From Candidatus Levyibacteriota bacterium (GTDB taxonomy: Bacteria > Patescibacteriota > Microgenomatia > Levybacterales > GWA1-39-11), in the NCBI GenBank assembly GCA_036788695.1, contig DAIQMY010000001.1, forward strand, positions 236,134-300,133: 64,000 bases of DNA, in the 5' to 3' direction. This document shows positions 2,482-36,833 of this stretch, piece after piece. The translations under genes and the position numbers were made by a program. A model generated the notes under the pieces. The model saw only the letters and a program-made list of their open reading frames with translations. It was not told the origin of the DNA and ran no database searches. Position 1 is the stretch's first letter; every line of letters starts with the position of its first letter.

Positions 2482-3018
2482 ATGGATGACAAAACACAAA
2501 AACCAAAAGTTGAAGAAAATCTGGATGAAATAGAAGAGCTAGACGATGAATTAGATGAAGAAGAGGAGAAGTTGGCATCCGAGCAAAGAGAGCAGGCGGG
2601 ACTGAAGGAGAGAATTACAAGCCTTGAAGACCAGTTGAAGCGGGCAGTTGCGGATTATAGAAATCTTGAAAATAGAGTTCGGGAGGAGCGTTTAGAATTT
2701 GTTAAGTACGCAAACAGATCACTTATAGAGCAGTTGCTCCCAGCATTTGACACGCTTCTACTTGCTGAGAAATACACAAAAGACGAGAATTTAAAAATTA
2801 CGGCTAAGCATATATTGGAGGTATTAAAAGTTGCGGGAATTGAGAAGGTTGAAACAATTGGTAAGAAGTATGATCCTATCACCATGGAGGCGGTAGAAGT
2901 AATAGAGGGAGATAAGGAGAAGGTGCTTGAAGAGACACAGCCTGGATTTACGATATATGGGAAAATTATAAGACCCGCAAGAGTTAAAGTTGGGGGAAAA
3001 GATACGGTAAAAGAGTAG
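2482..3018 (+). CDS. grpE: Nucleotide exchange factor GrpE
   Basis: An acidic N-terminus and coiled coil (LEDQLKRAVADYRNLENRVREER), followed by a GrpE C-terminal beta domain (KKYDPITMEAVEV...GFTIYGKIIRPARVKV). Confidence 0.85.
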   Translation: MDDKTQKPKVEENLDEIEELDDELDEEEEKLASEQREQAGLKERITSLEDQLKRAVADYRNLENRVREERLEFVKYANRSLIEQLLPAFDTLLLAEKYTKDENLKITAKHILEVLKVAGIEKVETIGKKYDPITMEAVEVIEGDKEKVLEETQPGFTIYGKIIRPARVKVGGKDTVKE

Positions 3019-3090: not shown

Positions 3091-5022
3091 ATGTCTAAAA
3101 TAATTGGAATAGATTTAGGAACAACAAATTCATGCGTTGCAGTAATGGAGGGCGGCGCGCCAAAAGTAATATTTTCTGCGGAGGGTAGAAATGTAACCCC
3201 ATCTGTTGTGGATCCAGTAGATAGAGTGGTTGGTGATGTTGCGAAAAGGCAAATGGTTTTAAAGCCAAAGCGTATCATTTTTTCTATAAAACGTCTTATG
3301 GGTCGTCGTTTTAATGATCCAACCGTTCAAGAAGACATAAAGCTGCTTCCCTATACCGTAAAGGCAGGGAAGGATGGACTTGCTGTTGTAGAGGTAGACG
3401 GAAAAACATATACGCCTCAAGAAATTTCAGCGATGATTCTGCAGAAAATAAAGTCTGATGCTGAATCGTATTTAGGAGACAAAATTACCCAGGCAGTTAT
3501 CACAGTTCCTGCGTACTTTGATGACGCACAGCGTCAAGCTACAAAACAGGCGGGAGAAATAGCAGGGCTAGAAGTTTTGCGTATCGTAAATGAGCCAACG
3601 GCCGCCGCGCTTGCTTATGGATTGGATAAAAAACATGCACACACAATTGCTGTATATGATATGGGTGGTGGTACGTTTGACGTATCTATATTAGAGTTAG
3701 GCGAAGGTGTATATGAGGTAAAATCTACAAATGGTGATACGCATTTAGGTGGAGACGATTTTGATCAGAAAATTATTGATTATCTTGCGGACGAATTTAA
3801 GAAAGAAAACAGCATTGATTTAAGGCGCGATCCTCAGGCGCTTCAAAGACTAAAAGAAGCAGCTGAAAAAGCAAAGATTGAATTATCATCATCTTCAGAA
3901 GCTGAAATCAATCAACCATTTATTACCCAAGGACCTAATGGACCACTTCATCTAACCATGAAGTTGTCTCGTGCAAAACTTGAGAGTATTGTAGGTGATT
4001 TAATTACAAAATCATTTAAATCTGTTGAATCAGCGCTCAAAGATGCAGGACTAAAAGCATCTGATGTGAATGAGATTATTATGGTCGGGGGTATGACCAG
4101 AATGCCAAAGGTAGTTGAGGAGGTAACAAAATTCTTTGGAAAAGAACCCAATAAAAGTGTAAACCCGGATGAGGTAGTAGCAATTGGAGCAGCTGTTCAG
4201 GCAGGAGTATTAGGGGGAGACGTGAAAGATGTATTGCTTTTAGACGTAACTCCACTGACGCTTGGTATTGAAACATTGGGTGGGGTTGCAACACCACTTA
4301 TTAATAGAAATTCAACAATTCCGACAAAGAAATCTCAAGTATTCTCAACTGCAGCAGATAATCAGACTCAGGTAGAAATTCATGTTGTTCAGGGTGAGCG
4401 TCCTATGGCAGCGGATAATAAATCTCTGGGAAGATTTGTTCTGGATGGAATTCCACCTGCTCCTAGAGGTGTTCCTCAAGTTGAGGTTGCATTTGATATA
4501 GATGCCTCAGGAATTCTTTCTGTTTCAGCAAAAGATAATGCAACAGGTAAAACGCAAAGCATTAAGATTACTGGAGGTACAGGTCTTTCAAAAGATGAAG
4601 TTGAAAGAATGACAAAAGAAGCAGAGGCACATGCTGAAGAAGATGAGAAGAAAAAGGAGTTGATTGAAGTAAGAAATAGAGCGGATGGACTCATCTTTAC
4701 CGCAGAAAAATCATTAAAAGACTTGGGAGAAAAAGTTCCTGCAGATTTAAAATCAGACGTTGAGGGGAAGATTTCTGCTCTGAGGGAAGCATTAAAAGGT
4801 GAAGACAAGGCAGATATAGAAGCAAAGACACAAGAGTTATCTGACCATCTATCCAAAATTGGTGAGACTATGCAAAACCAAGCTGGACAGCCTGGTGGAC
4901 AGGCAAGTTCAGGAGATTCTGGCGGAGAACAGCCATCTCAGGAGACATCACAGGCGAATCAAGACGGATCTGAAGCATCCACGGATAAAGACGAAGCCGT
5001 TGAGGGAGAAGTAGTAAACTAA
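3091..5022 (+). CDS. dnaK: Chaperone DnaK (Hsp70)
   Basis: Carries [26 protein letters not shown] and [16 protein letters not shown] motifs, and is full length with an acidic/G-rich C-terminal tail. Confidence 0.95.
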
Positions 5023-5131: not shown

Positions 5132-5821
5132 CTAGTCTGTGTATGCAATTTTTTTGGGGGTAAACACTTTTTTTATTGATTCAACAACCCCTTTATGAGC
5201 AAGCTTATTATATAGCTGACGTGCTTCTCTTTCTGACGCATGATAGTCAAAGATACGACTTGTTTTTTTTGTAACACCTAACCCCAGATCGCCCAGAATT
5301 ACGTTCGCATTTCCCTCAGAGTCGACAATAAAAAAATAGGTATCTTCGTATATATTAAAGCCTGCTCTATCTGCTTTTTGTGAAATTTCAATAAGCTGCT
5401 TCTTAACATTTTGTTTATTTTTAATAACCTCTTCAAAATCTACTTTTTTTTCAAATATCTCATTCATAGAAAATACTAATTTCTTATTTCCCTCTGTCAG
5501 ATCTGTTACGATTATGCTTCTTGTGCCCTCAATTTGCCTAACGGTTAGAGGAACAGGAAGGTCAGCTTGTTTCAATTCCAGATAATGTTTTACATAATCG
5601 TCTGAAACAAAAAACTCCCATGCTCGTGCATATTTAGGATCTCTTTCAGCAAATTTTCCCGCATTTCTTTCTCTCCCATTTTTTATGAGTACTAATTCTT
5701 GGATTATATATCTTGCTTCGTTGCCACTTCCTATATAAGTACCGTTTCCCCTAAGGAATACTTCTGACTTACGTCCAGTAAGTGGCGAGATGAGTGTTTT
5801 TCTTTCGTGATTTTCTGGCAT
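5132..5821 (-). CDS. Hypothetical protein with a minimal protein-kinase-like motif order (Bud32/RIO/KdkA-like?)
   Basis: In kinase order it has a Gly-rich IGSGNEARY, then VLIK (VAIK-like Lys), then IVDSEGNANVIL (catalytic-loop-like D...N), then GDLGLG (DFG-like), at ~229 aa. There is no confident family assignment. Confidence 0.3.
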   Translation of the reverse strand: MPENHERKTLISPLTGRKSEVFLRGNGTYIGSGNEARYIIQELVLIKNGRERNAGKFAERDPKYARAWEFFVSDDYVKHYLELKQADLPVPLTVRQIEGTRSIIVTDLTEGNKKLVFSMNEIFEKKVDFEEVIKNKQNVKKQLIEISQKADRAGFNIYEDTYFFIVDSEGNANVILGDLGLGVTKKTSRIFDYHASEREARQLYNKLAHKGVVESIKKVFTPKKIAYTD

Positions 5822-5861
5822 GAGTAGTATTATAGCAATAATTGTGCATCCGTTATAGGAT

Positions 5862-6173
5862 ATGCTAGTATTAATACATATGGCTTGTGCAGTAAATGAA
5901 GTAGCAACAGAATTAGGTTGTCTTCCTGATGATCCAGTAGGTTTTGTTCAAAAGTTTTATGGTTGGGGACTTTCTCTTATTGGAATGGTTGGGATTTTGT
6001 TTCTTATTTATGGAGGTTATCACATTCTAACATCCGGTGGGAATCCAGAAAGATTACAAAAAGGTAAGGAATATATATATTATGCAATTGCAGGAATTTT
6101 ACTCGCTGTTTTTGGGTATGTATTTGTAGAATTTATTGCAGGGTCAATACTTAGAATTCCCGGATTTTCATAA
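5862..6173 (+). CDS. Small two-TM protein resembling a TrbC/VirB2-type pilin core
   Basis: About 100 aa with two hydrophobic helices (GWGLSLIGMVGILFLIYGGYHIL and IYYAIAGILLAVFGYVFVEFIAGS) separated by a short polar loop (NPERLQKGKEY). There is no obvious cleavable leader. Confidence 0.3.
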   Translation: MLVLIHMACAVNEVATELGCLPDDPVGFVQKFYGWGLSLIGMVGILFLIYGGYHILTSGGNPERLQKGKEYIYYAIAGILLAVFGYVFVEFIAGSILRIPGFS

Positions 6174-6181
6174 TTTTTATT

Positions 6182-8344
6182 ATGTTAAAACAACTGCCCA
6201 TATTGTTTTTTTCAATACTGCTTTTATTGGTGTTTTCCTCTCGTGTGAGCTTTGCACAGTCAACATCAACAGTGAATACTTCCAAAAATCCTTTGGGAAC
6301 AGTAAATATTAAAATAGCAGATAATTCTGATTCTGTTCAGATTGATGATTCAGTGACTCCTGCAGTTGGGGATTGGATACCTGATTCAACGGTTACATTT
6401 GTGGGAAAAACAGCGAATAGGGCTGGAGATTTTCTTGATTGGACTATTCGGAATTATGACTGGACATGTGTAAAAACGAACACTGGATCATGTACGAGCG
6501 CGGGAAATCCATTAGTGGGCTTCTGGGCGCTTATCAGGAACATTGTATATGCGCTTCTTCTTATTGTAGTGTTGATTGCAGCTTTTGTGATGATAATAAC
6601 ACGCGGTAAAAGCCTGACAATAACACGTTTTATTCCACGATTTATATTTATTATTATATTAGTAACCTTATCATATGCACTTATACAACTTGCCTATCAG
6701 GTGACGGATATTGTCCAGGGATTTTTTCTTAGAACGGATGGAAAGCTTATCTCAACAAAAGACTTAATATTTATTGGATTTGATTATAAGAATTTTGAGG
6801 GAGCAAGGCGATATGGTTCACAGTATGATGAATCAGCTTTTATCACTCTCTTATTAGTACGGCTTACGGCTCTAACGTACTACGTTATGACAGGGGTGTT
6901 GTTAGTAAGAAAGATTATTTTATGGTTTTTTATTATCTTATCGCCTGTTTTTCCGCTTTTGCTCTTTTTTAAGCCCGTAAGAAATACAGGTAAAATATGG
7001 GTAGGTGAGTTTTTTAGATGGTTATTATACGCACCTCTTTTTGCAATATTTTTACAAGGATTAGTTGTACTGTGGAAGAGCAAAGGAGGTATACCTCTAG
7101 CATTTGATTTTACAAATGTGGGAAATGTTATCTACCCTACCGCAGTAAATATTTTAATAGGAGGACCTGGACAAAAGATATTTTTTGATACAGAAACAAG
7201 TTCTAACAGTGTTAACTTACAGGATACATTTGCGCTTTACATTGTAGCCTTGTTGATGTTATGGGTGGTAATTATATTGCCATTCTTGCTTCTTAAAATT
7301 TTCTTAGATTACTTAGGTGGGATATCACTTCAAGATAATGTGACAATGAAAAGGCTTCTTAATCGTGGATCTGAATTTTTACCAATTAATCGTCCTCCAA
7401 CTTCTCCTCCACCTGCTTCACTTCCGCCATCTCAAGGTGCGGGTAGAGCTATGCAAATACCATTTAATGCGTCTGCTTCCCGAAATATATCTGATACAAG
7501 AGCAATGAGTTCAGCACAGGCAAATCGTTCTATTGCGTCTATTCCGGTTAATGCACAGATATTGCAACTCGCTAATTTATCAGTACCAAAAATGCGAGAT
7601 ATTGCTCGTTTTGAAACATCTATGGTAACTCATAATTCGTCTAAAATGCAGGATGTCTCAAGACTAAAAACATCACTTACGAGAATTTCAAATCCTACTA
7701 CTATCACTGCTCCATTAGAGCGAGAAAGATATACGCAAGTAAAACAACAATTAATGTCAGAGAAACAAAAAGGTAATGTTCTGGCATCCTCAATTTTGAC
7801 TGCAGCAAACACAACAGCCGCTCCTTATCAGAAAGGAATGGTTTCATCCCAACAGGTTCATTTGCCGCAAGCAAATAAAGTTCAACAAGTAAGCATAGAA
7901 GACTACGAAGAAGTAAGAAAAATGTGGCAAGATACGTACCAAAATTCGACACCTCCAACTGATCTTTCAGGAAAGAAGGATTCAAGAGAAGAGTGGATTA
8001 AAGGAGATATAGATAAAATCAATCAAGCTATAACACTTTTAAATTCCGTTGATCCGGTAAGAACTCAGGAGGGAATGGATATGGTTTCAAATATACTTCC
8101 GTTCCTTATGATTGGTGGTTTCTCGAAAACTGAAGTTGTTGCCTATCTCAAGGCGAAGTTAGAGGCTGCCAAGGATGTTCTTTCATCAAGTTCCAAGAAA
8201 AATGAAGAAGACGATACTATGATTGATCGTAAAACAAAAACTGCAACTGCGGAAAATCATATGAGCACTCATGCAGAGGCAGAAGTTCCAACAGTAGATG
8301 ATGGCACAAAAAAACTTGAAGAATTAAGAAAACAAGGGCTATAA
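6182..8344 (+). CDS. Signal-peptide-bearing polytopic membrane protein, VirB6/TrbL-like topology, with a long S/T/Q-rich C-terminal region
   Basis: Has an N-terminal signal (LLLLVFSSRVSFAQS), a ~70-aa ectodomain, at least five TM helices, and a ~350-aa polar tail. It starts 9 nt after the small two-TM gene. Confidence 0.3.
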   Translation: MLKQLPILFFSILLLLVFSSRVSFAQSTSTVNTSKNPLGTVNIKIADNSDSVQIDDSVTPAVGDWIPDSTVTFVGKTANRAGDFLDWTIRNYDWTCVKTNTGSCTSAGNPLVGFWALIRNIVYALLLIVVLIAAFVMIITRGKSLTITRFIPRFIFIIILVTLSYALIQLAYQVTDIVQGFFLRTDGKLISTKDLIFIGFDYKNFEGARRYGSQYDESAFITLLLVRLTALTYYVMTGVLLVRKIILWFFIILSPVFPLLLFFKPVRNTGKIWVGEFFRWLLYAPLFAIFLQGLVVLWKSKGGIPLAFDFTNVGNVIYPTAVNILIGGPGQKIFFDTETSSNSVNLQDTFALYIVALLMLWVVIILPFLLLKIFLDYLGGISLQDNVTMKRLLNRGSEFLPINRPPTSPPPASLPPSQGAGRAMQIPFNASASRNISDTRAMSSAQANRSIASIPVNAQILQLANLSVPKMRDIARFETSMVTHNSSKMQDVSRLKTSLTRISNPTTITAPLERERYTQVKQQLMSEKQKGNVLASSILTAANTTAAPYQKGMVSSQQVHLPQANKVQQVSIEDYEEVRKMWQDTYQNSTPPTDLSGKKDSREEWIKGDIDKINQAITLLNSVDPVRTQEGMDMVSNILPFLMIGGFSKTEVVAYLKAKLEAAKDVLSSSSKKNEEDDTMIDRKTKTATAENHMSTHAEAEVPTVDDGTKKLEELRKQGL

Positions 8345-8394: not shown

Positions 8395-11055
8395 ATGTTC
8401 GGAAATTTATTTAATTCAGGAAAACAGAACGACCAGATTGTAAGTCATGACACTCGGGTAAATATTGGAGATCCTGCACTTGGGGGAACAAGTATTTCCA
8501 TTAATTCGTCAGATAACCCAAATCAGATACAGCCCCCTCCTGTTTCTCAAAGCGCTGTCGGAATGGATCCACAAAAAAGGGAAAATATGTTTGCCTTGTC
8601 GCGTCTTGATCCTCGAGCACTCCAAGTTCTTCATCATGCTCAGGAAGAAACTAAGCGCTTGTCTCAAGAATTTATTAATCCTGAGCAGCTTTTGCTAGGG
8701 CTTTTTTATGATGGGGATGTATTTCGCATATTAGAGCAATTCAGTGTAGATGTAGCTAAGTTAACACATGAGATTCAAGCAAAAGAAAAGCCGGGCGCTT
8801 TTTCTGGACAACCCACTATGGGTCCAAGCGTTGTTAAAATTTTTGATGAGGCATATTCGAATGCAAAAAAAAGAGGAGCCTCATTTGTTTCCCCTGAGGA
8901 TATAATGGTTGCACTTTTTTCGGAAACATCAACTTCTGAGTTTTTAAAAACATTTGGGGTACAACGTGATAAATTAGAGGAAAAATTATCTAAATCTACC
9001 GGATATGCTTCATCTTCAAGAAAAAGTGTGCTTGAGAGATATGGGATTGATCTGACTCAAGAAGCAAAGGACGGAAAGTTAGATCCTATTGCGGGTCGTG
9101 AGCGGGAAACAGAACGTTTAATACACATTTTATTAAGAAGAACCAAGAATAACCCAATCATAATTGGTGAGGCAGGTGTAGGAAAGACAGCAATTGTCGA
9201 ATCGCTTGCACTTAAAATTGCAGAAGGATCAGTTCCTCATGATCTTCTCAATAAGCGAATTATTCAGCTAGAGCTCGCATCACTTGTTGCGGGAGCTTCA
9301 CATAGAGGTGAATTTGAGGAGAGGTTACAGGATGTAATTAAAGAGACACAGGCATCAAATGGTCAAGTAATATTATTTATTGATGAGATACACACGCTTA
9401 TAGGGACTGGGGATACACAGGGAGCTATGGATGCTTCCAATATTATAAAACCATATTTGGCAAGAGGGCAGTTGCAGCTTATTGGAACTACGACTACTGC
9501 TGAGTATCGTAAATATTTTGAAAAAGATAAAGCATTTGAAAGGCGCTTTCAGGCAGTGTTAGTAGATGAACCTACTGAAGATGTTGCAGAACAAATGCTT
9601 GAAGTTTTAAAGCCAAAATATGAAAAATTTCACTCTGTTGAGATTACCCCAGAGGCAATTCAAGCCGCGGTTCATCTTTCAAAAAAATATATAGGAGAAA
9701 GATATTTACCTGATAAGGCGGTAGATTTACTAGATGAAGCAGCAGCTGAGGTAAAACTACAACATACAGAAGGAAAAAGACAGGATAACAAGGTTGTAAA
9801 ATCAGACATAGAGAAAGTTGTATCTGCCTGGACTGGAATTCCCATAACTCGTCTAACTGAAGATGAATCTCAGAAGTTAATTCATTTGGAAGATATTATT
9901 CATAAAAGACTCATTGATCAAGAAGAGGCTGTTGCGGCAGTATCTGAAGCAGTCAGGCGTGGAAGGATTGGTCTTGCGAGTGCAAACAGACCAATCGCAT
10001 CATTTATTTTCTTGGGTCCAACTGGAGTTGGGAAAACGGAACTAGCAAAAACTCTCGCGGAAATTCTCTTTGGGCGGGACGATCTTATGATAAGACTAGA
10101 CATGTCAGAGTACATGGAAAAACATGAGGTTGCAAAACTTATAGGTGCCCCTCCTGGTTATGTGGGGTACGAAGAAGGTGGGCAGTTGACGGAAGCAGTG
10201 CGCGCAAAGCCTTACTCAATAGTACTTTTAGATGAAATAGAAAAAGCCCATCCAGACGTATTCAATATTTTACTCCAGTTGCTAGAGGATGGAAGACTTA
10301 CTGATAATAAAGGGAATACTATATCTTTTAAGAATACAATTATTATAGCAACATCAAATATTGGGTCTTCCCTTATTCAACAAACTCTTTTAACGCAAAG
10401 TTCAAACGCAACTCAAGTAGTTTCTCCTGCAGAGGAAGCAAAAAGATTCTCATCTTTATCAAAAACATTGATGGATGAATTAAGGAAGTTTTTTAAACCA
10501 GAATTATTAAATCGTTTTGATGAGATAGTAATGTTTAAGCCACTGCGCCAACAGGACATGATGCAGATCGCAAGAATAGGGATATCCAAAACACAAAAAT
10601 TATTAGCAGAACAGGATATAGACCTAACTATAACTGAAAAAGCTCTTGGTGTATTGTCAAAAGAAGGTTACGATCCGGTTTATGGAGCACGTCCGCTCAG
10701 AAGACTTATACAATCATCCATAGAAAATCCAATCGCAATACTTCTTATTAACAAAACGTTTGTGGCGCATGATACAGTTCAAATTGATTATGATGATACA
10801 AAAGCACAGTTTACTTTTACAAAACTGGTACAAGCTGTGGATAAAAAAGAACAACCACCTACTGCAACACCTTCAACACAAGCAGCAACTGAACCAACCA
10901 ACACAACAACAGTTAAGTCTACTGAGACAGCAAACGGGAATGGGATCTTGTCTGATATTGCAAAAGAGCACTCGGCTGTTACGCCTCCGCCTACACAAAC
11001 AACTCCTCCAACGCCATCAGTTGACGCAAGTGGCACTATGATGCAACCCGCCTAA
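8395..11055 (+). CDS. Class-I Hsp100/Clp AAA+ ATPase (ClpA/ClpC-like, two AAA modules, no M-domain)
   Basis: Has Clp_N repeats. D1 carries GEAGVGKTAIVE and ILFIDEIHTLIG (intact Walker A/B) plus an ERRFQ arginine finger. D2 carries FLGPTGVGKTELAK, LLDEIEKAHPDV, GARPLRR and LLNRFDEIVMF. Only ~28 aa separate D1 and D2, so there is no ClpB-type coiled-coil M-domain. It has low-complexity N-terminal (~70 aa) and T/P-rich C-terminal tails, and no IGF/L ClpP loop is apparent. Confidence 0.8.
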   Translation: MFGNLFNSGKQNDQIVSHDTRVNIGDPALGGTSISINSSDNPNQIQPPPVSQSAVGMDPQKRENMFALSRLDPRALQVLHHAQEETKRLSQEFINPEQLLLGLFYDGDVFRILEQFSVDVAKLTHEIQAKEKPGAFSGQPTMGPSVVKIFDEAYSNAKKRGASFVSPEDIMVALFSETSTSEFLKTFGVQRDKLEEKLSKSTGYASSSRKSVLERYGIDLTQEAKDGKLDPIAGRERETERLIHILLRRTKNNPIIIGEAGVGKTAIVESLALKIAEGSVPHDLLNKRIIQLELASLVAGASHRGEFEERLQDVIKETQASNGQVILFIDEIHTLIGTGDTQGAMDASNIIKPYLARGQLQLIGTTTTAEYRKYFEKDKAFERRFQAVLVDEPTEDVAEQMLEVLKPKYEKFHSVEITPEAIQAAVHLSKKYIGERYLPDKAVDLLDEAAAEVKLQHTEGKRQDNKVVKSDIEKVVSAWTGIPITRLTEDESQKLIHLEDIIHKRLIDQEEAVAAVSEAVRRGRIGLASANRPIASFIFLGPTGVGKTELAKTLAEILFGRDDLMIRLDMSEYMEKHEVAKLIGAPPGYVGYEEGGQLTEAVRAKPYSIVLLDEIEKAHPDVFNILLQLLEDGRLTDNKGNTISFKNTIIIATSNIGSSLIQQTLLTQSSNATQVVSPAEEAKRFSSLSKTLMDELRKFFKPELLNRFDEIVMFKPLRQQDMMQIARIGISKTQKLLAEQDIDLTITEKALGVLSKEGYDPVYGARPLRRLIQSSIENPIAILLINKTFVAHDTVQIDYDDTKAQFTFTKLVQAVDKKEQPPTATPSTQAATEPTNTTTVKSTETANGNGILSDIAKEHSAVTPPPTQTTPPTPSVDASGTMMQPA

Positions 11056-11079: not shown

Positions 11080-12834
11080 ATGCAAAGCATACTTCATGTG
11101 TTAAGGCGTATTGATACTCGTTTTTTTCTGTTGCCATTTTTATTATTTGCATTTGGAGCAATTGGATACGTAGCTGTCCAGGGGATATTTTTTCAAAATG
11201 ATAAAATATTTCCTCAAGGCGTACGGTATATTCCTGATCAAATAATAGTTAAATATAAAATTGGTCAATCTCCAGATGAACTTCAAAACGCGGGTAAGAT
11301 AGAAAATAGAAAAGTTCTCTTATCAGCATTATCAAATGTGGGTGTTGTCTCACAAAAGAGGCTATATGTTTCAGAAAATTCTTTGCTTGAAAATTATTAT
11401 GTATTAACGCTCAAGCCTGGTTTTACTGTTCCAGACGCATATAATAAGATCACAAAGATACCCGAAATAGAAAATGCTGCACCTGACTATATATTAAAAA
11501 TACAAGAGATGCCTAATGATCCATACTACCCATCTATGTGGAATCTTTCTAAGATTAAAGCAGAATTAGCGTGGGATTCTGTGCATGTAGGCGGGAGAGT
11601 CACAATTGCAGTTATTGATACGGGAGTTGATTATCAGCATGAGGATTTAAAAGATATCGTTATAAAAGGAAAGAATTTTATTTTAAATGATAATAATCCA
11701 ATGGATGACCAGGGGCATGGAACGCATGTTGCAGGAATAGCTGCCGCAGTTACAAATAATGGTATTGGGATAAGTGGTGCTACATGGGGAGCTAAAATAT
11801 TGGCTATTAAAGCCTGTGATAAAAATGGGGATTGTAGTACGGCAAATGTTTCAAGAGCTATTCAGTACGCTGTAGATAATAATGCAAAAATTATAAATGT
11901 CAGTATTGCTGGGAGCGGTTCGTGTAATGGAACATATACAGATGTATTAAGATATGCGGCAAGAAAAGGCGCGATAGTAGTTGTTGCTGCAGGAAATGGA
12001 AATAATGGGGATGGAATAGGTGTAAATGTAGAATCCCAAATACCCGCATCGTGTGAAGGTTCTATTGCGGTAGGTTCAATAACAGCAGATGGTAAAAGGT
12101 CAGGTTTTTCTAATTTTGGATCCAAAGTTGAAGTTTCAGCTCCGGGTGGTGTTGGTCCTTGTACTATGGAGAGTTGTATTATTTCAACCAGTATTAATAA
12201 TTCGTACTCACTTCGTTCTGGAACATCTATGGCAGCCCCTCAGGTGAGTGCTGTCGCCGCTCTCCTTTTAGCTTCTGATAAAAATTTGTCTATGTCAAAA
12301 ATTAAATCCTGTATTTTAAGTGGAGGAGATAACATTCAAACAGATAAAAGTATCGGTCTTCTTCTGAACGCCCAAAATTCCCTAAAGATTTGTACTAAAA
12401 TTGAGGCAACTCCTACTCCAAAAATGAGTAAAAATAATTCGTCTATTGCGGGTACTGTATTTATTGACGAAAATAAGAATAAAAAGCTTGACTCAATAGA
12501 AAAAACATTATCGTCTGCCCAGATAATCTTGTCCGGCTTAAGTAATGATAGTGTTCTTAGTAACTCAAAAGGTAAATATTTATTTTTGGGGTTACCGGGT
12601 GGTTTATACACAATATCTGCAACCCTAAATGGGCAAAGCGTAATTGTACCTATAGACGTATCTGTTGCATCAGATAATTCGGTTCAACTTAATATACCTA
12701 TATCTTCGGAGATGGTGATTATTACGCCAACACCTTCATTCGCAAAGCAAAAAACTGCGTCTTATTGTTTCATAGACCCCGAGTGTTTAAAGAGTAGGAA
12801 CTCAGTTCAAATATGTTCGTTTCGGTGTGAGTAA
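11080..12834 (+). CDS. Subtilisin-like serine protease (peptidase S8), N-terminal TM/signal anchor
   Basis: Catalytic triad contexts VTIAVIDTGVD (Asp), HGTHVAGIAAA (His) and GTSMAAPQVSAVAALL (Ser), with a hydrophobic N-terminus and a C-terminal beta-rich extension. Confidence 0.8.
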   Translation: MQSILHVLRRIDTRFFLLPFLLFAFGAIGYVAVQGIFFQNDKIFPQGVRYIPDQIIVKYKIGQSPDELQNAGKIENRKVLLSALSNVGVVSQKRLYVSENSLLENYYVLTLKPGFTVPDAYNKITKIPEIENAAPDYILKIQEMPNDPYYPSMWNLSKIKAELAWDSVHVGGRVTIAVIDTGVDYQHEDLKDIVIKGKNFILNDNNPMDDQGHGTHVAGIAAAVTNNGIGISGATWGAKILAIKACDKNGDCSTANVSRAIQYAVDNNAKIINVSIAGSGSCNGTYTDVLRYAARKGAIVVVAAGNGNNGDGIGVNVESQIPASCEGSIAVGSITADGKRSGFSNFGSKVEVSAPGGVGPCTMESCIISTSINNSYSLRSGTSMAAPQVSAVAALLLASDKNLSMSKIKSCILSGGDNIQTDKSIGLLLNAQNSLKICTKIEATPTPKMSKNNSSIAGTVFIDENKNKKLDSIEKTLSSAQIILSGLSNDSVLSNSKGKYLFLGLPGGLYTISATLNGQSVIVPIDVSVASDNSVQLNIPISSEMVIITPTPSFAKQKTASYCFIDPECLKSRNSVQICSFRCE

Positions 12835-12876: not shown

Positions 12877-13746
12877 ATGAAAAAGGATTATTACGAGATA
12901 CTCGGCGTATCAAAGAGTGCGACTCCTGACGAATTAAAAAGGGCATATAGAAAATTGGCCCTGCAGTATCATCCAGATAAAAATAAAACCCACGAAGGTG
13001 AGGAAAAATTTAAGGAAATAAACCATGCATATGAAGTGCTTTCAGATCCTGGAAAGCGTGCGACGTATGATCAGGTCGGTCCGTCTGGATTTGATGGAGG
13101 CGCAGGCGCTGCGGGTGCAGGAGGACCATTTGGTGGGCAGAGGGGTGGTCAATACGGACCGTTTACCTACACATATGGGAATGGTGCGGAGGGAGCAAAT
13201 TATGATTTTGGCGGGTTTTCTGACCCGTTTGAGATCTTTGAGCAATTTTTTGGGGGTGGATACGCAAAGCGTAAACCAAGATACAGTATAACGATAGACT
13301 TTTTAGAGGCAGTTCATGGTACTTCAAAGAAGGTTTCAATAGATGGGAAAGCTCAAACAATTAAAATTCCTGCAGGAGTAGATAACGGATCAAGAATTCA
13401 ATTTCCAAACTATGAAGTCATTGTAGGAGTGAGAGGAAGTAGCAAATTTCACAGAGAAGGAAATGATATTATAACTGAGAGTGTAGTCCCGCTATCTATT
13501 GCCATTCTTGGTGGAACCATAGAAATAGAAACTGTGCATGGTCAGGTAACACTTAAAATTCCTGCAGGAACTCAACCGGACACCCTTATGAGAATAAAAG
13601 GAAAGGGTGTGCCTCGTGTTAGGGGTGGAGGAAGCGGTGATCATTTTGTTCGAATTAAAATTCTCATTCCAACAAGGATAAACTCACGACAAAAAGAATT
13701 ACTTCATGAGTTTGATGAAGAAAGCCGTAAGAAGAAGTGGTTTTAA
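12877..13746 (+). CDS. DnaJ-family co-chaperone (J domain, G/F region, C-terminal substrate-binding domains), no zinc finger
   Basis: [35 protein letters not shown] is a J domain with HPD, followed by a G/F-rich region. There are no CxxCxGxG repeats, so it is CbpA/class-B-like. Confidence 0.75.
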
Positions 13747-14153
13747 TAAGAGTCAGAGAATTAGATTCCCAAGCTATTGCTTTCCCTCGTTATAAACATC
13801 TAATATGTATACATATGGGTATTCTGTCCTATCCTCTTTTGGTGGTTTTGTTTTGGTATAAAGAAGGTATATTTTATATCTTGTTGTATTTCCGTTCGTT
13901 TGACGACTACTGCATACGACTACTCTCATTGCATGGATTATTCTCAAGCTATTTTAAGCCGCTTAAAAACGAGTACAGAAAGAATCTTATTTTGTTTTCA
14001 ATACTTTTTGGGGTGATTGTCAAAACATGTTTAATTGCCATATCTCTCCTTCTATTGTTTTTCATTTTACTTTTTGAGGGACTATTGCTCCTCCTCTATA
14101 TTCTTTTTCCAATTCTGCCTTTATTTATTCTATTTTTATCTAAATATATATGA
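13737..14153 (+). CDS. Hypothetical small hydrophobic protein; may be spurious AT-rich translation
   Basis: A 138-aa ORF in an otherwise ~400-bp gap that overlaps the downstream Hsp100 paralog start as ATGA. Its composition is dominated by F/I/L from AT-rich DNA. Confidence 0.2.
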
Positions 14154-16528
14154 GTCTTATGAAAAATCTTGATCTGTTTAGCTTGTATGTTTTTTATAAT
14201 AATATATTCGTAAAAACCTTTCGTTTTTTAATACTTTTTTTATTAACGATTGCCTTGTTCTACGTAATAAGTGATTTATATTTGTTTAGAATAATTCTTA
14301 GTTTTTATATTGTATTTCTTGTAAATGAAATTTTTATTCATTTTAAGATTAATAAATCCCATCCTTTCAACACAGTAATGATAAGTAGCGACTTGCCTGA
14401 GAAGGCAGTACTGCTGAACGTAAGATATTTGATTTGGTCAAAAAGTAATAATGCTTTTCTTGAGAAATTAATAAAGCAGAAAGATGTTCTATTCTTTATT
14501 ACAAAAATCGACGGATTTAAGGTGTCTTCTGTTGAATTCAATATGACTGGGTTACTTAACAAAGCATCTTCGCTTGCGCAAGCCTGCAAGGGGACATACA
14601 TAACTGCCGCTGATATTTTTGCAGCATATCTTCTTATAACTGAAAACGAAAGCCATCTTTTGGATCAAAAAGAGTTAACAGAGAACGATATTTTGGAAAT
14701 ACTTTTATGGAGTAGGGAAAAATATAATTTTGATAAGGTAAAAGATTTTACGATGCATTTTACAGGAGCGGGTGTTTTTGATTTTTTTATCTACGGTTGG
14801 AATACTCAATTAAAAGAATACTCACTTGATTTAACGTATAGCGTACTTGGGAAAAATATGGCACCTGTTGTAGGGAGAGAAAAAGAGTTTTCTCAAATGG
14901 TGGGAATATTATCAAAAAATTCAATCAATAACATATTAATAATAGGAGAACCTGGTGTTGGAAAATCTTCTCTTGTATCACTTCTGGCATTAGAAGCATA
15001 CCGAAATACGAGATTTATTTTACATAGCACTGTTGTGTATGAGCTTCTTGTTGATAGGCTGCTTGCTGGCGTTTCAGATGCGGGAGAGTTGGAAACGCGC
15101 CTAGGCTTACTACTTTCCGAAATCGAACATATTGGAAATGCTGTACTCTTTATTCAAAACATGGAAAATATCTTTGGAGCTGGAGGGTTTGGTTTTGATA
15201 TGTCGGGAATATTATTTTCCTATTTAAAAAATGGAAAGGTACAGATAATAGGTACAACTACACCGTCATTTTATAAAACTATAATTGAAAAGAAATCAAG
15301 TATTATGAGCTTGTTCGAATTATTAAGGCTAGAGGAACCTGACCGTGATGTCTCACTGCAAATGATTGTGGCCCATGTTGATACTATTGAAAGAGAATAT
15401 CATGTGACCATTTCATATAAAGCAATACATGAGGCATTGGAATTGGCCTCATCATTTCTTCCCGAAACATTTCTTCCTGGGAAAGCAATTATTCTTCTCT
15501 ATGATATTTCGTCGAGGGTTAGGCTTGCGGGTGGAGGTCAAGTTGAGAAGGAGGATGTGGTGAAGTTTATTCAAGAAAAGACAAATATTTTACTTGAAAG
15601 GCCAGATGTAGACGAGAAAAAAGTTTTATTATCTCTAGAGCAAGAATTGCACAAGAGAATAATAGGGCAAGATGAGGCGGTGACTGCAATTTCAAAAGCA
15701 ATAAGAAGGCTCAGGAGTGGTTTTTCTCAGAGTAAACGTCCAATTTCAACTTTTCTCTTTTTAGGTCCTACGGGAGTCGGAAAAACGGAAACAGCAAAGG
15801 CACTATCTCAAATATACTTTGGGGATGAGGCAAATATGATCAGACTTGACATGAGTGAGTATCAGACACAAAATGAGGTGGAAAGATTGTTAGGCGGTGT
15901 TCCTGGAGGGATAGAAATAGAAAACTCATTACCTGAGCAGGTTAGGCTTCATCCTTTTTCACTAATACTATTAGACGAATTTGAAAAGGCACATCCGCAT
16001 ATATTAGATATTTTTCTACAGGTTTTTGAAGATGGTCGACTTACGGATAATAGTGGTAAAACGGTTTCATTTAAAAATACTATTATTATCGCAACAAGCA
16101 ACGCGGGCTCAGAGTCAATTCGTGAGATGATGCATGAAGGGAAAGACCCATTTCTTGCGAAAGACGTTTTAGTAGAGGGATTACTTAGGGAAGGAGTTTT
16201 TAAGCCAGAACTTTTAAATAGGTTTGATGATGTGATTATTTTTACCCCACTTTCTGTTTTTGAAGCGACTGAAATCGCGAAGTTGATCTTGGCATTATCT
16301 TTGAAGTCATTAGAGGATGAACAGATTTTTATAGGATTTGACGACAAGGTTGTAAGTAAAATAGTGCACGATTCATTTGATGAAGAGGCTGGTGCTAGAA
16401 ATATGAGAAGATATGTAGGGTCGACTATTGAGGACTATATATCAAAGCTTATACTGGAAGACAAGTTGCAAAAAGGAGCACATGTAACTTTAACTGTCGA
16501 CGAGACCAACAATTTTATATTACAATAA
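14150..16528 (+). CDS. Membrane-anchored Hsp100/Clp paralog with inactivated D1 (pseudo-ATPase) and intact D2
   Basis: The N-terminal ~70 aa are hydrophobic (2 TM), followed by a Clp_N-like domain. D1 keeps a Walker A (GEPGVGKSS), but its Walker B is VLFIQNMENIF versus ILFIDEIHTLIG in the upstream paralog, so DE has become QN, and its arginine finger ERRFQ has become MSLFE. D2 is intact (FLGPTGVGKTETAK, LILLDEFEKAHPHI, GARNMRR, LLNRFDDVIIF). An alternative start lies at Met77 (~14378). Confidence 0.7.
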   Translation: MSLMKNLDLFSLYVFYNNIFVKTFRFLILFLLTIALFYVISDLYLFRIILSFYIVFLVNEIFIHFKINKSHPFNTVMISSDLPEKAVLLNVRYLIWSKSNNAFLEKLIKQKDVLFFITKIDGFKVSSVEFNMTGLLNKASSLAQACKGTYITAADIFAAYLLITENESHLLDQKELTENDILEILLWSREKYNFDKVKDFTMHFTGAGVFDFFIYGWNTQLKEYSLDLTYSVLGKNMAPVVGREKEFSQMVGILSKNSINNILIIGEPGVGKSSLVSLLALEAYRNTRFILHSTVVYELLVDRLLAGVSDAGELETRLGLLLSEIEHIGNAVLFIQNMENIFGAGGFGFDMSGILFSYLKNGKVQIIGTTTPSFYKTIIEKKSSIMSLFELLRLEEPDRDVSLQMIVAHVDTIEREYHVTISYKAIHEALELASSFLPETFLPGKAIILLYDISSRVRLAGGGQVEKEDVVKFIQEKTNILLERPDVDEKKVLLSLEQELHKRIIGQDEAVTAISKAIRRLRSGFSQSKRPISTFLFLGPTGVGKTETAKALSQIYFGDEANMIRLDMSEYQTQNEVERLLGGVPGGIEIENSLPEQVRLHPFSLILLDEFEKAHPHILDIFLQVFEDGRLTDNSGKTVSFKNTIIIATSNAGSESIREMMHEGKDPFLAKDVLVEGLLREGVFKPELLNRFDDVIIFTPLSVFEATEIAKLILALSLKSLEDEQIFIGFDDKVVSKIVHDSFDEEAGARNMRRYVGSTIEDYISKLILEDKLQKGAHVTLTVDETNNFILQ

Positions 16529-29138: not shown

Positions 29139-30065
29139 TCAAGGCGTAAGTTTTACCATCGAGTTTTTAATGATGATAAACCCTTCTTCTTCAAGCTGTG
29201 TTATGGCCATCTTGAAGTATTCGGAATTGGTAAATTGCCTCTCAAGTTCTTGCAATGGAACAACGTTAGTCGCAAGAAGAATTTTTATGATTGCGCCTCG
29301 TATTTGACGCCTTGAACCCTCAAATACAGTTTGTTTTAAGTAGTGCTTACTTTTATGATTAGGATTAATGGTAACTTTTCTTAGGTATACTCCGTAATCC
29401 ATTAACGCATAGTACCATTCTCTCGGGTTATTGTAGTCAAGTGTTCTCTTGATAACTGTAAGGATATCTTCATCAGGAATTTTTTCTTGTTCCATAAAAA
29501 ATGTATGGATAAAAACACGTCTTATATTTGTTTCTATAAAAACAAATGGCTTATTCGTTGAAAAAACATATATCGCTCCTGCGGTATTAACACCGATACC
29601 AGAGAATGTTTTTAGAACTTTGGGATCAAGAGGTAGCTTTCCTAGATAGCTATGATTTGTAATTTCCGCTATTTTCTTAAGGTATAGCGCACGTCTGTTA
29701 TACCCAAGTCCGCTCCAGACCCTCAACACATTCTCGTAAGTAGCATGTTCAAGGTCAGAAAGAGTAGGAAATTTATCAAGAAATTCTTTATATTTCGGTA
29801 ACACTCTTTCTGTTTGAGTTTGCTGTAGCATAACCTCGGATACAAGAATATGGTAAGGATTTATTGTTTTTCTCCAGGGAAATACCCTTTTATGCTTAGC
29901 GTAGAAATGCCAAATCTGTTTTTTAAAAATTGATTCTTTCACGCGGATAGTATACGAAAGGTTATTTTTGTGTGGTTTTTTCTTTATAAAACCATTGGTA
30001 ATATACCACTGGAATAAAGAATAGCATGATTGTTCCAGAGAAAACGAGACCTGCAATAATAGCAC
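29139..30065 (-). CDS. mutY: MutY-family adenine DNA glycosylase lacking the Fe-S cluster cysteines
   Basis: VFPWRKTINPYHILVSEVMLQQTQ and VWSGLGYNRRA are MutY signatures within an HhH-GPD domain. There are no Cys anywhere after the catalytic domain. The ATG start overlaps the upstream RND gene by ~100 nt, and an in-frame GTG about 41 codons later (~29942) is an alternative start. Confidence 0.7.
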   Translation of the reverse strand: MLLLQVSFSLEQSCYSLFQWYITNGFIKKKPHKNNLSYTIRVKESIFKKQIWHFYAKHKRVFPWRKTINPYHILVSEVMLQQTQTERVLPKYKEFLDKFPTLSDLEHATYENVLRVWSGLGYNRRALYLKKIAEITNHSYLGKLPLDPKVLKTFSGIGVNTAGAIYVFSTNKPFVFIETNIRRVFIHTFFMEQEKIPDEDILTVIKRTLDYNNPREWYYALMDYGVYLRKVTINPNHKSKHYLKQTVFEGSRRQIRGAIIKILLATNVVPLQELERQFTNSEYFKMAITQLEEEGFIIIKNSMVKLTP

Positions 30066-33000: not shown

Positions 33001-33297
33001 GGTGACTGTGGTAACCTTTTCAATTGATCTGACGGCATTTTCAAGAGGAATAGTAATGAGAGATTCTACATCTTCTGGTCCTGCACCAGGGAGAACTGTT
33101 GCAACTATCACTAATGGAATTTTTACCTCTGGATTAAGGCGTCTTGGAAGACTTAAGTATGAAACTGCCCCAATTCCAACTACTATAAGGAGAATAAGTA
33201 TGGACAGTCTTGGATTCCCAAGATATTTTGCAAACCAACTTTGCTTGAGTTTTGGGTCAAATTGTAATTTGTGAAGATAGGATACTGTTTTTTTCAT
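29962..33297 (-). CDS. RND-superfamily efflux transporter (AcrB/AcrD/AcrF-like)
   Basis: 1111 aa. The N-terminus (FAKYLGNPRLSILILLIVVGIGAVSYLSLPRRLNPEVKIPLVIVATVLPGAGPEDVESLITIPLENA) follows the RND pattern, with 12 predicted TMs and two large loops. Confidence 0.75.
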   Translation of the reverse strand: MKKTVSYLHKLQFDPKLKQSWFAKYLGNPRLSILILLIVVGIGAVSYLSLPRRLNPEVKIPLVIVATVLPGAGPEDVESLITIPLENAVRSIEKVTTVTSTSQDNSSVIQIEFNSSVDPEKAKTDIQGVVDTVTLPEDAFEPQIQKVDFENQPVWTFALIGSGDYASIARFSKTIKDKLEELPSIDHVRTGGLETQEISIIMDVNAANAYQLNPFSLSQLVKNSLSAFPSGTIRTENSSFSLAIDPSISTIEDVRNLTLNINGEIVPLSSIASISERSKPNSPSTYFASRTQTATKAIVFDVYKTSGSNIDKAVFDAEKLVETSIEPHKNAFYVRSIQNTGEQIDEQFSHLVRDFTLTIVLVFAVLFIFLGARPAIVSFFAVPLTFLITFTVMRVTGISLNFLSMFSLLLSLGLLVDDAIVVISAMSSYFRSGKFTALETGILVWKDFIVAILTTTLTTVWAFVPLLLASGIIGEFIKSIPIVVSSTLIASFFVAMFMTLPFMVILLKPQIPRRVSILLQILLLIGLLILFFFVAPKGIFLIFSVLALIVTLFITIIVWRILFTKTKIYLKTANRKNPLLARIPSYIDNGFISFERIGVQYERILERILSSKSNRRNVIIMVVIFSLFSYLLLPLGFVKNEFFPPSDQKNVYVSLELPVGTNIQVTEKEAISILNRLRTTPDILYITSDIGQGFSDMGGATSTGTNNVLFSITLPERSERSRDSIQLAENLRQDLKNYSKGVITVTEVSGGPPAGADIQIKLLGEDLSVLDRYADQVISYLKNQNGIVEPKKSIKEGTSKIVFTPQKEIMTTHNIGAETIAGWLRTFASGLKLDSAKITGDFSEETDITLRLGTGEQRIEDIYNLTIPTQKGNVPLTSLGILELKPNPTQITREDGERTISISAGVRGGATSSEINAKLEKFANSKLNLPSGYTWKTGGVNEENQNSINSILSAMLLSFTLILATMVIQFSSFRKAVIVMLVIPLSISGVFILFAVSSTPLSFPALIGVLALFGIVVKNSILIVDKITANEKHNMPFIKSIADATGSRLEPITLTTFATIMGLIPITLSDPLWRGLGGAIIAGLVFSGTIMLFFIPVVYYQWFYKEKTTQK

Positions 33298-33308
33298 TAC
33301 ACATATAA

Positions 33309-34826: not shown

Positions 34827-34909
34827 ATGTGCACGGTGAAGGATTGATTCTAGCAGAAAATGAGGTGCAAGCGCAAGAGTATATGTATTAGTATTTTTTT
34901 TGAGATGAT

Positions 34910-36121: not shown

Positions 36122-36123
36122 AC

Positions 36124-36819: not shown

Positions 36820-36833
36820 GACATTGTTATTTT

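Follow-up and report, generated by a model that had tools for sequence, protein, structure and literature searches.

A VirB2-like pilin and an extended VirB6-like protein linked to an atypical Hsp100 ATPase among chaperone genes of Candidatus Levybacteria

By common understanding, one universal ATPase, VirB4, defines the type IV secretion systems (T4SSs) and extracts the VirB2 pilin from the membrane. In the locus described here, genes for VirB2- and VirB6-like proteins lie among chaperone genes, next to that for a different ATPase. The locus is part of a 64,000-nucleotide stretch of Candidatus Levyibacteriota DNA (contig DAIQMY010000001.1, positions 236,134 to 300,133; hereafter the window), in which an earlier sequence-only reading had proposed an orphan membrane pair, one protein like VirB2 (TrbC) and one like VirB6 (TrbL). 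The coordinates given for the two genes, 5862-6173 and 6182-8344, both on the forward strand, were right, and the genes are separated by 8 nt, not by the 9 nt reported. From sequence comparison we conclude that the pair comprises a VirB2-like pilin and a divergent, extended VirB6. Moreover, we give an even chance to the proposal that they form a surface-filament or conduit module served by an Hsp100 ATPase, a coupling that we infer from the evidence presented below.

The window is low-GC (~37%) chromosomal DNA of uniform composition along its length, and its housekeeping genes include hrcA, grpE, dnaK, dnaJ, tgt, queA, nusA, infB, pnp, RNase J, ftsK, and alaS. The best database matches of both pair proteins are metagenome-assembled genomes (MAGs) of Candidatus Levybacteria (Microgenomatia, candidate phyla radiation (CPR)/Patescibacteria), with 605 homologs for the 720-aa VirB6-like protein and 75 for the small pilin-like protein. 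One genome per GTDB species was scanned, yielding 80 loci, all from Levybacteria or related Microgenomatia, that were annotated with the window's own proteins, and a wider related set comprised 86 loci, each covered to ±10 kb. The gene order of one locus, L001 (a 592-kb contig, GCA_964419005.1), is identical to that of the window, and both genes of the pair are intact in at least 80 species, at 39-93% identity.

The upstream gene (5862-6173, +) encodes a protein of 103 aa that matched the T4SS_pilin family (PF18895; cutoff 26.6 bits) at 34.1 bits, with an E-value of 3e-8 and 64 of the 71 profile positions aligned, and a precomputed match to this family was present in 64 of 75 pilin homologs. 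The VirB2-like assignment is therefore supported by this family and not by the TrbC profile (PF04956) suggested for checking it, which gave no match to the window pilin and reached at most 26.8 bits (cutoff 27.9) with the pilin paralogs of L046. The second-best family for the window pilin was NF045849 (Mbov_0395 pilin-like), at 28 bits, under its cutoff of 40. Kyte-Doolittle windows and the helices of an AlphaFold2 (AF2) model agreed with the earlier description of a two-helix hydrophobic protein of ~100 aa. In this model, the predicted local distance difference test score (pLDDT) is 82.9 overall and >90 in the helices, which span residues 25-56 and 62-95 and are joined by the loop TSGGNPERLQKGK. 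The layout of the protein is an N-terminal C-x10-C beta-hairpin, a helix, a basic loop, a second helix, and a C-terminal (I)LRIPGF, with C9, C20, and the terminal PGF invariant in the alignment of homologs, and the model suggests that the N-terminal hairpin is exposed and disulfide-stabilised. A fold search with the model returned nothing significant, but was uninformative because a simple hairpin does not discriminate. Since most homologs are 96-99 aa long and open with M-x-C, the true start is probably Met7 (nt 5880), which would give a protein of 97 aa. A TAG stop at 5856-5858, just 5' of the open reading frame (ORF), rules out an upstream leader peptide, and no long cleaved leader was found on the pilin, with 2 of 27 aligned homologs having a hydrophobic leader that ends before the first Cys. 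Pilin paralogs of 124-167 aa occur in the variant loci described below. As a separate observation, the T4SS_pilin domain is also found in proteins of 267-548 aa encoded 5' of hrcA or within pilin arrays (L005 4122-5285 (-), L059, L062, L078, L083, L091 2034-3680 (-), and L092 14231-15694 (-)).

Four independent lines of evidence, each weak to moderate, support the VirB6-like call for the downstream protein (720 aa; 6182-8344, +). The TrbL profile (PF04610), proposed earlier as a check, was sub-threshold for the window protein, at 21.5 bits (cutoff 25.9; E 2.2e-4; aa 130-291; 170 of 215 positions), but exceeded the cutoff in four relatives (P0267, 34.2; P0248, 31.3; P0246, 26.8; P0223, 26.0). 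Moreover, it matched 15 of 25 diverse relatives (E <=0.01) and was the sole family to recur among them; TrbL_3 (PF19590) is precomputed in some relatives, and NCBI labels one relative 'type IV secretion system protein'. Foldseek (E 8e-3) placed TrwI/VirB6 chains of plasmid R388 at ranks 1-7, 9, and 10, with probabilities of 0.91-1.00; the top matches (8rt9_F, 7o3v, 8rtd) had a probability of 1.00 and target TM-scores of 0.42-0.51, and all other structures had probabilities of <=0.16. Weak tblastn matches were obtained in a set of 72,556 plasmids, eight of the nine falling in genes annotated as T4SS proteins, and the one that was inspected lies where an MPF_T operon has its VirB6 gene. An hhalign comparison with that plasmid VirB6 aligned the core motif (E 6.9e-4). 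A profile of the VirB6-like family searched against all PDB chains returned coiled-coil noise from the tail alone. An exhaustive profile search among 1.84 billion proteins found 633 representatives at E <=1e-3, some of which reach 2790 aa, indicating that the family is, as judged by its sequences, small and well apart from mainstream VirB6.

The layout of the protein bears out the earlier description of a polytopic protein with a signal peptide and a polar C-terminal tail. The predicted signal peptide (aa 1-25; 6182-6256, +) contains a hydrophobic helix at aa 4-19 and ends ...SFA|Q, the A-x-A/Q end being conserved in the alignment. A putative extracytoplasmic N-domain (aa 60-112; 6359-6517, +) is conserved among homologs, with invariant positions including D68, G75, K76, R80, Y92, and W94, and contains two Cys that are either both kept or both lost across homologs, a co-variation that suggests a disulfide. 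The hydrophobic helical core (aa 113-380; 6518-7321, +; pLDDT ~90) is the TrbL/VirB6-homologous part and the most conserved segment. It carries the motif RKIILWFF..SP.FP..RNT.KIW.GEFFRWLLYAPLFA and, according to AF2 and hydropathy, five hydrophobic helices (aa 110-139, 147-183, 213-262, 264-299, and 349-380). C-terminal to the core, a proline-rich linker leads into a polar tail of ~270 aa, the order of which in the family is an 'MRDIAKYE' segment, 1-15 copies of a ~50-aa helical repeat, and a conserved terminal domain. The window protein has a single copy of the repeat (aa 495-544; 7664-7813, +; 'IANP...QKGN.LA.SIL'), followed by the terminal helical domain (aa 562-670; 7865-8191, +; LP.VN.VQ.VS.EDYEEVRKMW ... 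ILPFL..GGFS..E..AYLKAK), which has invariant columns from P562 to K659, a pLDDT of 85-95, and no Pfam or PDB match. In aligned homologs of 1100-1250 aa, the entire tail module is duplicated.

As the sequence-only reading had stated, neither VirB4, VirB11, nor VirD4 is encoded in the 64 kb, where Pfam searches of ORFs of at least 110 aa, excluding those nested inside longer ones, gave no CagE_TrbE_VirB, AAA_10, T4SS-DNA_transf, or TrwB match, and the unannotated ORFs were negative for VirB4. The sole FtsK/SpoIIIE-family ATPase (48114-50273) is recognisable as chromosomal FtsK by its alpha, beta, and gamma domains. The same three ATPases were also not found within ±10 kb of the pair in the 86 related loci. 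For the loci, all unannotated ORFs that reach 250 aa in the set of 80 (274 in total) were clustered and Pfam was run on the Walker-A clusters; the candidates for VirB4 were rejected as IF2, chromosomal FtsK, an ABC ATPase, MetRS, NusA, and proteases. The description of the pair as 'orphan' thus holds for its neighbourhood (64 kb in the window and ±10 kb in 86 loci), this being the scale to which it applies, rather than that of the whole genome. At the genome scale, a survey of Patescibacteria T4SSs (PMC12102498) reports VirB4 in 20 of the 44 Levybacteria genomes in the part of its Table S1 covered here and no detected VirB4 in the other 24, while almost all MAGs of other classes in the same study have it. 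Three of the surveyed genomes match our loci (L049, VirB4-positive; L033 and L047, VirB4-negative), and all three carry the pair. The survey also places virB4 near dnaA/dnaN in Microgenomatia, describes VirB6 as 'scarce' in this class, 'suggesting extreme sequence divergence', describes Patescibacteria T4SS genes as scattered, with VirB2-like genes away from virB4 in ~40% of assemblies, and contains no mention of ClpB or DnaK (PMC12102498).

Conserved co-occurrence of the pair, another expectation of the earlier reading, was evident in related genomes: 75 of the 80 species loci have the pilin gene immediately 5' of that for the VirB6-like protein, with a median gap of 3 nt. A gene for a ClpB-like Hsp100 is persistently linked to the pair, occupying position +1 relative to the VirB6-like gene in 58 loci, +2 in nine, and -6 in three, the last being the position in a variant clade without hrcA/dnaK, and the 10 loci without it all end at a contig edge on the relevant side. 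The median gap between the VirB6-like and ClpB-like genes is 47 nt. Two arrangements are embedded in the hrcA-dnaK operon, namely hrcA-grpE-dnaK-pilin-VirB6L-ClpB-protease-dnaJ-membrane protein-second Hsp100 and hrcA-grpE-dnaK-dnaJ-pilin-VirB6L-ClpB-(protease)-membrane protein-second Hsp100, so that dnaJ stands, depending on the lineage, downstream of the protease gene or upstream of the pilin gene. The genes flanking the chaperone/pilin block differ among loci.

In the window, hrcA (1755-2474), grpE (2482-3018), and dnaK (3091-5022), all on the forward strand, were identified by Pfam HrcA, GrpE, and HSP70 matches of the L001 equivalents and by TIGR00331, and their order is the same in most of the 80 loci. 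Upstream of hrcA, a CIRCE-like operator (TTAGCAGTC-N9-ATTGCTAA; 1677-1703, +) overlaps a strong promoter-like site (TTGACA-17-TATATT; 1667-1695). With 3 mismatches to TTAGCACTC-N9-GAGTGCTAA, it is the sole match in the window at <=3 mismatches, where 0.01 chance matches would be expected, and 48 of 55 related loci have a CIRCE-like element no more than 200 nt 5' of hrcA, with no enrichment elsewhere. This CIRCE-like operator probably governs a common transcript of hrcA-grpE-dnaK and the module in most lineages. For the window genome this is uncertain, because a 229-aa gene on the opposite strand (5132-5821, -) parts dnaK from the pair, which would therefore need a promoter of its own; a weak candidate lies at 5815-5842. 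The intervening gene has no Pfam, NCBIfam, or PADLOC match, is restricted to the closest relatives (L001-L004, L007, and L008), and falls outside the conserved module.

The ClpB-like gene stays with the pair outside the heat-shock operon as well. In a variant clade (L046, L052, L062, L091, and L092), hrcA, dnaK, and CIRCE are all absent, and the ClpB-like gene is found inside arrays of 3-10 divergent pilin paralogs, together with the VirB6-like gene and a gene for a SpoIID-type cell-wall hydrolase. The flanks of these variant loci encode SpoIID, SmpB, further pilins, and PEGA/SH3 proteins, and no ATPase was found there. In L087, a pilin-pilin-VirB6L-ClpB-pilin set is located between glycolysis genes. 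Since it is kept in loci without hrcA, dnaK, or CIRCE, the linkage to ClpB is independent of the heat-shock operon, and HrcA regulation was rejected as its sole cause.

The ClpB-like protein (886 aa; 8395-11055, +), which we propose as the cytoplasmic partner of the pair, contains two AAA+ rings. It scored 896 bits against TIGR03346 (cutoff 1232), in two stretches that skip profile positions ~415-524, and 697 bits against the ClpV family (cutoff 885). The D1-D2 linker, from the end of D1 (..DEA) to WTGIP, is just 29 aa in 53 of 61 orthologs, as opposed to ~150 aa between the end of D1 and WTGIP in E. coli ClpB, indicating that the M-domain, through which ClpB is coupled to DnaK, is missing. 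The D1 pore loop, GAKYRGEFE in canonical ClpB, reads GA-SH-RGEFE (SH for KY, His for Tyr) in 61 of 67 orthologs, while both Walker A and Walker B-like motifs are present and the D2 loop, PPGYVG, is canonical. No ClpP-docking loop was found in the protein. This unusual type recurred among the ClpB-like proteins that were checked for every arrangement, that of the variant clade among them. Judged by these motifs, the linked ATPase is not a canonical ClpB, but an M-domain-less protein with a Tyr-to-His replacement in D1. In four independent genomes (L066, L071, L077, and L081), the ClpB-like gene is present as two ORFs of ~530-615 aa each, which may represent either a real D1/D2 split or a recurrent frameshift.

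Besides their adjacency, the VirB6-like and ClpB-like proteins share the ~50-aa tail repeat (consensus LKEVLEKIANPSSVTSPTEREKYTKLKEKLVKEKQKGNPLATSILSAANT). The repeat is present in 1-15 copies in 85 VirB6-like ORFs from the 86 loci, and its hidden Markov model (HMM) matched the L001 gene, taken as equivalent to that of the window protein, with an E-value of 2.3e-21. In five genomes (L005/6/83, L059, L068, L075, and L078), the adjacent ClpB-like protein bears a long C-terminal extension with 3-6 copies of the repeat, and across the 86 loci no ORF besides the VirB6-like and ClpB-like ones matched the HMM. Comparison of VirB6-like tails with ClpB-like proteins by blastp gave an E-value of 1e-12 within the same genome, with SEG filtering and composition correction, and up to 5e-36 across genomes. 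We rejected low-complexity noise as the source of this similarity, as it persists at E 1e-12 after correction and the HMM is specific. The repeat-bearing ClpB-like proteins have no hydrophobic or membrane segment, which argues that the repeat acts in the cytoplasm and thereby supports a cytoplasmic VirB6-like tail, in agreement with the positive-inside pattern of the five-pass model. We infer that the tail is most likely cytoplasmic. Of the earlier reading, the suggestion that the pair may work with neighbouring AAA+ unfoldases gains most from the comparison, through the adjacency in three arrangements and the shared repeat.

The R388 system offers a guide to how such a module might function. 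In R388, five VirB6 subunits form the base from which the pilus grows and to which VirB2 is recruited out of the membrane (Mace et al. 2022, PMC9259494), extraction of the pilin requires VirB4 and VirB11, and VirB5 forms the tip (PMC9259494). By analogy, the VirB6-like protein would oligomerise in the membrane and recruit the two-helix pilin from the bilayer, and the pilin would be assembled on this platform into a surface filament or conduit. The repeat-bearing tail may dock the Hsp100 at the platform by physical contact, or co-localise it there; docking is proposed because some lineages also place the tail repeat on the C-terminus of the Hsp100. The Hsp100, in turn, might extract or recycle the pilin, the task of VirB4/VirB11 elsewhere, or unfold cargo for export. 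In its most specific form, that of a VirB4-independent T4SS descendant energised by a dedicated M-domain-less Hsp100 docked via the VirB6-like tail, this proposal is tentative and we consider it somewhat unlikely.

Comparison with known systems places the module near several of them. TrwI/VirB6 and TrwL/VirB2 of R388 (PDB 7O3V, 8RT9, 8RTD; PMC9259494) are the best structural match to the hydrophobic core. R388 VirB6 is ~340 aa long, without a signal peptide or extra domains, whereas the Levybacteria protein, with a target TM-score of ~0.5 and a sequence identity of ~15% to it, adds a signal peptide, an N-terminal ecto-domain, and a repeat-bearing tail of ~340 aa, and no VirB5, VirB4, or VirB11 is encoded nearby. 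The Patescibacteria T4SSs, such as those of the Saccharibacteria 'Ca. Southlakia epibionticum' ML1 and Nanosynbacter lyticus TM7x, are likewise chromosomal, relaxase-free systems of monoderm CPR bacteria in which PF18895 VirB2-like pilins, single or in arrays, occur with a VirB6 homolog, but they are defined by VirB4 and clustered on it with VirB3/PrgI, TrsD, and VirB8 (Quinonero-Coronel et al. 2025, PMC12102498). In contrast with these, the Levybacteria module has no VirB4 within ±10 kb in 86 loci, is linked to an Hsp100, and lies in the hrcA-dnaK operon and not in the dnaA region. Extended VirB6 proteins include TcpH of C. perfringens pCW3, MPF_FA VirB6 homologs of 700-900 aa, and rickettsial RvhB6. 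This class (PMC12857230) has the same order of a VirB6-like hydrophobic core and a large hydrophilic C-proximal domain, but its members are encoded in VirB4-containing transfer loci and their tails show no sequence relationship with the 'IANP...QKGN.LA.SIL' repeat and terminal domain of Levybacteria, which have no Pfam or PDB match. On the side of the ATPase, a functional analogy can be proposed with ClpV/TssH of type VI secretion systems (T6SSs) and with Francisella ClpB, which serves the T6SS independently of DnaK (PMC5481754, PMC7182274), since these too are two-ring Hsp100s without ClpP coupling that were co-opted by a secretion machine; they differ in that they disassemble the contractile T6SS sheath. 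The pilin-like family of Mycoplasma integrative and conjugative elements (ICEs; NF045849, Mbov_0395/MMCAP2_0565) also consists of small two-helix conjugal transfer proteins of wall-less/monoderm bacteria, but has a mobile ICE setting, and the score of the window pilin, as noted, falls below its cutoff. Mycoplasma ICEs carry VirB4 (TraE) and VirD4 (TraG). VirB2-like pilins and VirB6 homologs are thus already known from CPR bacteria, and what is new relative to the literature found is that the pair is fixed within the hrcA-dnaK operon, that the ATPase consistently linked to it is an M-domain-less Hsp100 and not VirB4, and that the VirB6-like tail and this Hsp100 have a repeat in common. No Hsp100 linked to a VirB2/VirB6 module was found in the literature searched.

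The main rival reading is that the pair belongs to an ordinary Patescibacteria T4SS, as a divergent VirB2 and the 'missing' VirB6 of Microgenomatia, with VirB4, VirB3, VirB8, and TrsD encoded elsewhere, near dnaA, and that it sits among chaperone genes only because gene order was inherited or because it profits from the strong expression of such an operon. We take this to be a realistic possibility, although not the one to which we would commit. The survey speaks for it through the scattering of T4SS genes, the scarcity of VirB6 in Microgenomatia, the location of virB4 near dnaA/dnaN, and the presence of VirB4 in 20 of 44 Levybacteria genomes, with L049 carrying both the pair and VirB4. The survey also speaks against it, given that VirB4 was undetected in 24 of the 44 genomes while the other classes were nearly all positive, and that two pair-carrying genomes (L033 and L047) lack a detected VirB4. 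In addition, an ordinary T4SS would not account for the repeat common to the VirB6-like tail and the ClpB-like protein, the ClpB linkage is kept without hrcA, dnaK, or CIRCE, and the ClpB-like protein is itself atypical. Several points weigh against the Hsp100-served module. The VirB6 statistics are individually marginal (Foldseek E 8e-3; Pfam score of the window protein under the cutoff), and, with VirB6 homologs otherwise scarce in Microgenomatia according to the survey, the protein may simply be the VirB6 of this class, ~45% of Levybacteria genomes having VirB4 elsewhere by the same source. The coupling to the Hsp100 is argued from gene order and one shared repeat, and the repeat is shared in just five genomes, where local duplication between neighbouring genes is possible. 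The topology of the tail is uncertain because only two helices of R388 VirB6 cross the membrane, and the ClpB-like protein may be the sole working Hsp100 of the cell, and hence a general chaperone. Inherited synteny adds to the locus counts, since most loci come from one order-level clade. Finally, two Daviesbacteria-type loci (L088 and L089) have groES-groEL, and not ClpB, after the VirB6-like gene, which fits a looser pattern of location 'among chaperone genes' and, in favour of an ordinary T4SS, the logic of a highly expressed chaperone operon.

That steady position, next to dnaK/dnaJ, ClpB-like, or groESL genes and to genes for S8 or M4/M28 proteases, together with the CIRCE-like operator upstream of the operon and a second, membrane-anchored Hsp100 in the same cluster, could also be explained by a T4SS-derived complex repurposed for proteostasis. 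The VirB6-like protein would then be an anchor or adaptor whose cytoplasmic tail brings Hsp100, DnaK, or GroEL to the membrane, where envelope proteins would be inserted or quality-controlled, with the small hairpin protein as a subunit or client. We consider this unlikely, as arrays of 3-10 divergent pilins with a SpoIID-type hydrolase are the signature of a surface filament and the N-terminal hairpin of the pilin is modelled as exposed and disulfide-stabilised. Less probable still is a remnant of competence or conjugation, a decaying integrated element, or anti-phage defence, even though VirB2 and VirB6 are ancestrally conjugation genes and an AAA+ protein with an S8 protease superficially resembles the Iet defence system, to which only weak generic PADLOC matches were obtained. 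The neighbourhood contains no gene for a relaxase, a coupling protein, an integrase, or competence, so the competence role also entertained in the sequence-only reading found no support; the composition is uniform in a housekeeping context, the genes are intact across the many species sampled, and PADLOC was null for both pair proteins, with IetS/IteS scores far under cutoff. A defence system was rejected, given that PADLOC returned generic AAA and subtilase matches alone, and a mobile element or prophage was rejected on the basis of uniform composition and housekeeping neighbours.

If the VirB4-independent, Hsp100-energised form of the module exists, it would add a new motor for a T4SS-type machine, comparable to ClpV/ClpB in T6SSs, and might provide epibiotic CPR cells with a route to export unfolded proteins or extend attachment pili. 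HSP101 of the malaria PTEX translocon is a parallel use of an Hsp100. The lineage keeps its VirB2- and VirB6-like genes by an atypical Hsp100, and about half of its sequenced genomes show no VirB4. Should the module work without VirB4, the minimal needs of T4SS-type pilus assembly would have to be revised, and the known motors of envelope machines would come to include Hsp100 unfoldases. The data also supply a candidate for the VirB6 reported to be scarce in Microgenomatia, a first functional lead to the hydrophilic tails of extended VirB6 proteins, so far unexplained, in the form of an interaction module, and a pointer to how ultra-small, host-dependent bacteria may connect with their partners.

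Other genes of the block deserve a brief description. The gene after that for the ClpB-like protein encodes a membrane-anchored or secreted S8 subtilisin-type protease (584 aa; 11080-12834, +; Pfam Peptidase_S8 on the equivalent; hydrophobic aa 11-39). The protease at this position is of the S8 type in most lineages and a fused M4 thermolysin and M28 protein in L019 (15476-18739) and L024; that one protease has been exchanged for a non-orthologous one while the position stayed the same suggests that a 'secreted protease' belongs to the module, as cargo or as a pilin-processing enzyme. It is followed by dnaJ (12877-13746, +; Pfam DnaJ and DnaJ_C on the equivalent gene) and by genes for a small membrane protein (13737-14153, probable start 13815) and a second Hsp100 (14150-16528; 792 aa; best family ClpB/ClpA, 446 bits), which together span 13737-16528 (+). 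A membrane protein of ~108 aa always precedes the second Hsp100 in type A/B loci, its stop overlapping the start of the next gene. The second Hsp100 has 2-3 N-terminal transmembrane helices (hydrophobic aa 18-67), a degenerate D1 Walker B (FIQNME), and no pore-loop Tyr in either ring; it looks like a membrane-anchored, probably non-threading AAA+ protein and is conserved in most type A and B loci. In one sublineage (L019, L024, L025, L027, and L056), two extra genes are located between dnaK and the pilin gene (e.g., L024 6400-8505), encoding a protein of ~159 aa and one of ~700 aa with an N-terminal membrane anchor and no Pfam match; these could be further extracellular components of the module. 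The groES-groEL regions mentioned above are at 8650-11165 in L088, where two small ORFs (88 and 93 aa) lie between groES and groEL, and at 2359-4501 in L089, where a CIRCE-like site lies between the VirB6-like gene and groES.

Many of the GTDB representative MAGs sampled here, Levybacteria by gene content, are titled 'uncultured Gammaproteobacteria bacterium' (L008-L086), a labelling artefact, and these wrong titles could mislead searches that rely on taxonomy. Elsewhere in the window, an RND/MacB cluster (29962-38069, -) encodes, besides an AcrB-type RND transporter of 1111 aa, a MacB-type ABC pump (FtsX permease and ATPase) and two HlyD-type adaptors; adaptors of tripartite pumps would not be expected in a bacterium for which a single membrane is assumed. 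Three paralogous HhH-GPD base-excision glycosylases are encoded within 30 kb of this very small genome (24579-25193, 29139-30065, and 52658-53278). Lastly, the region 56931-60013 (+) encodes a 770-aa protein, the sole match of which is a faint one to Baseplate_J (E 0.007), and a sortase (59240-60013; E 1e-21 with Pfam Sortase) whose gene overlaps the end of that for the 770-aa protein, and the two may constitute a surface-protein/sortase pair.

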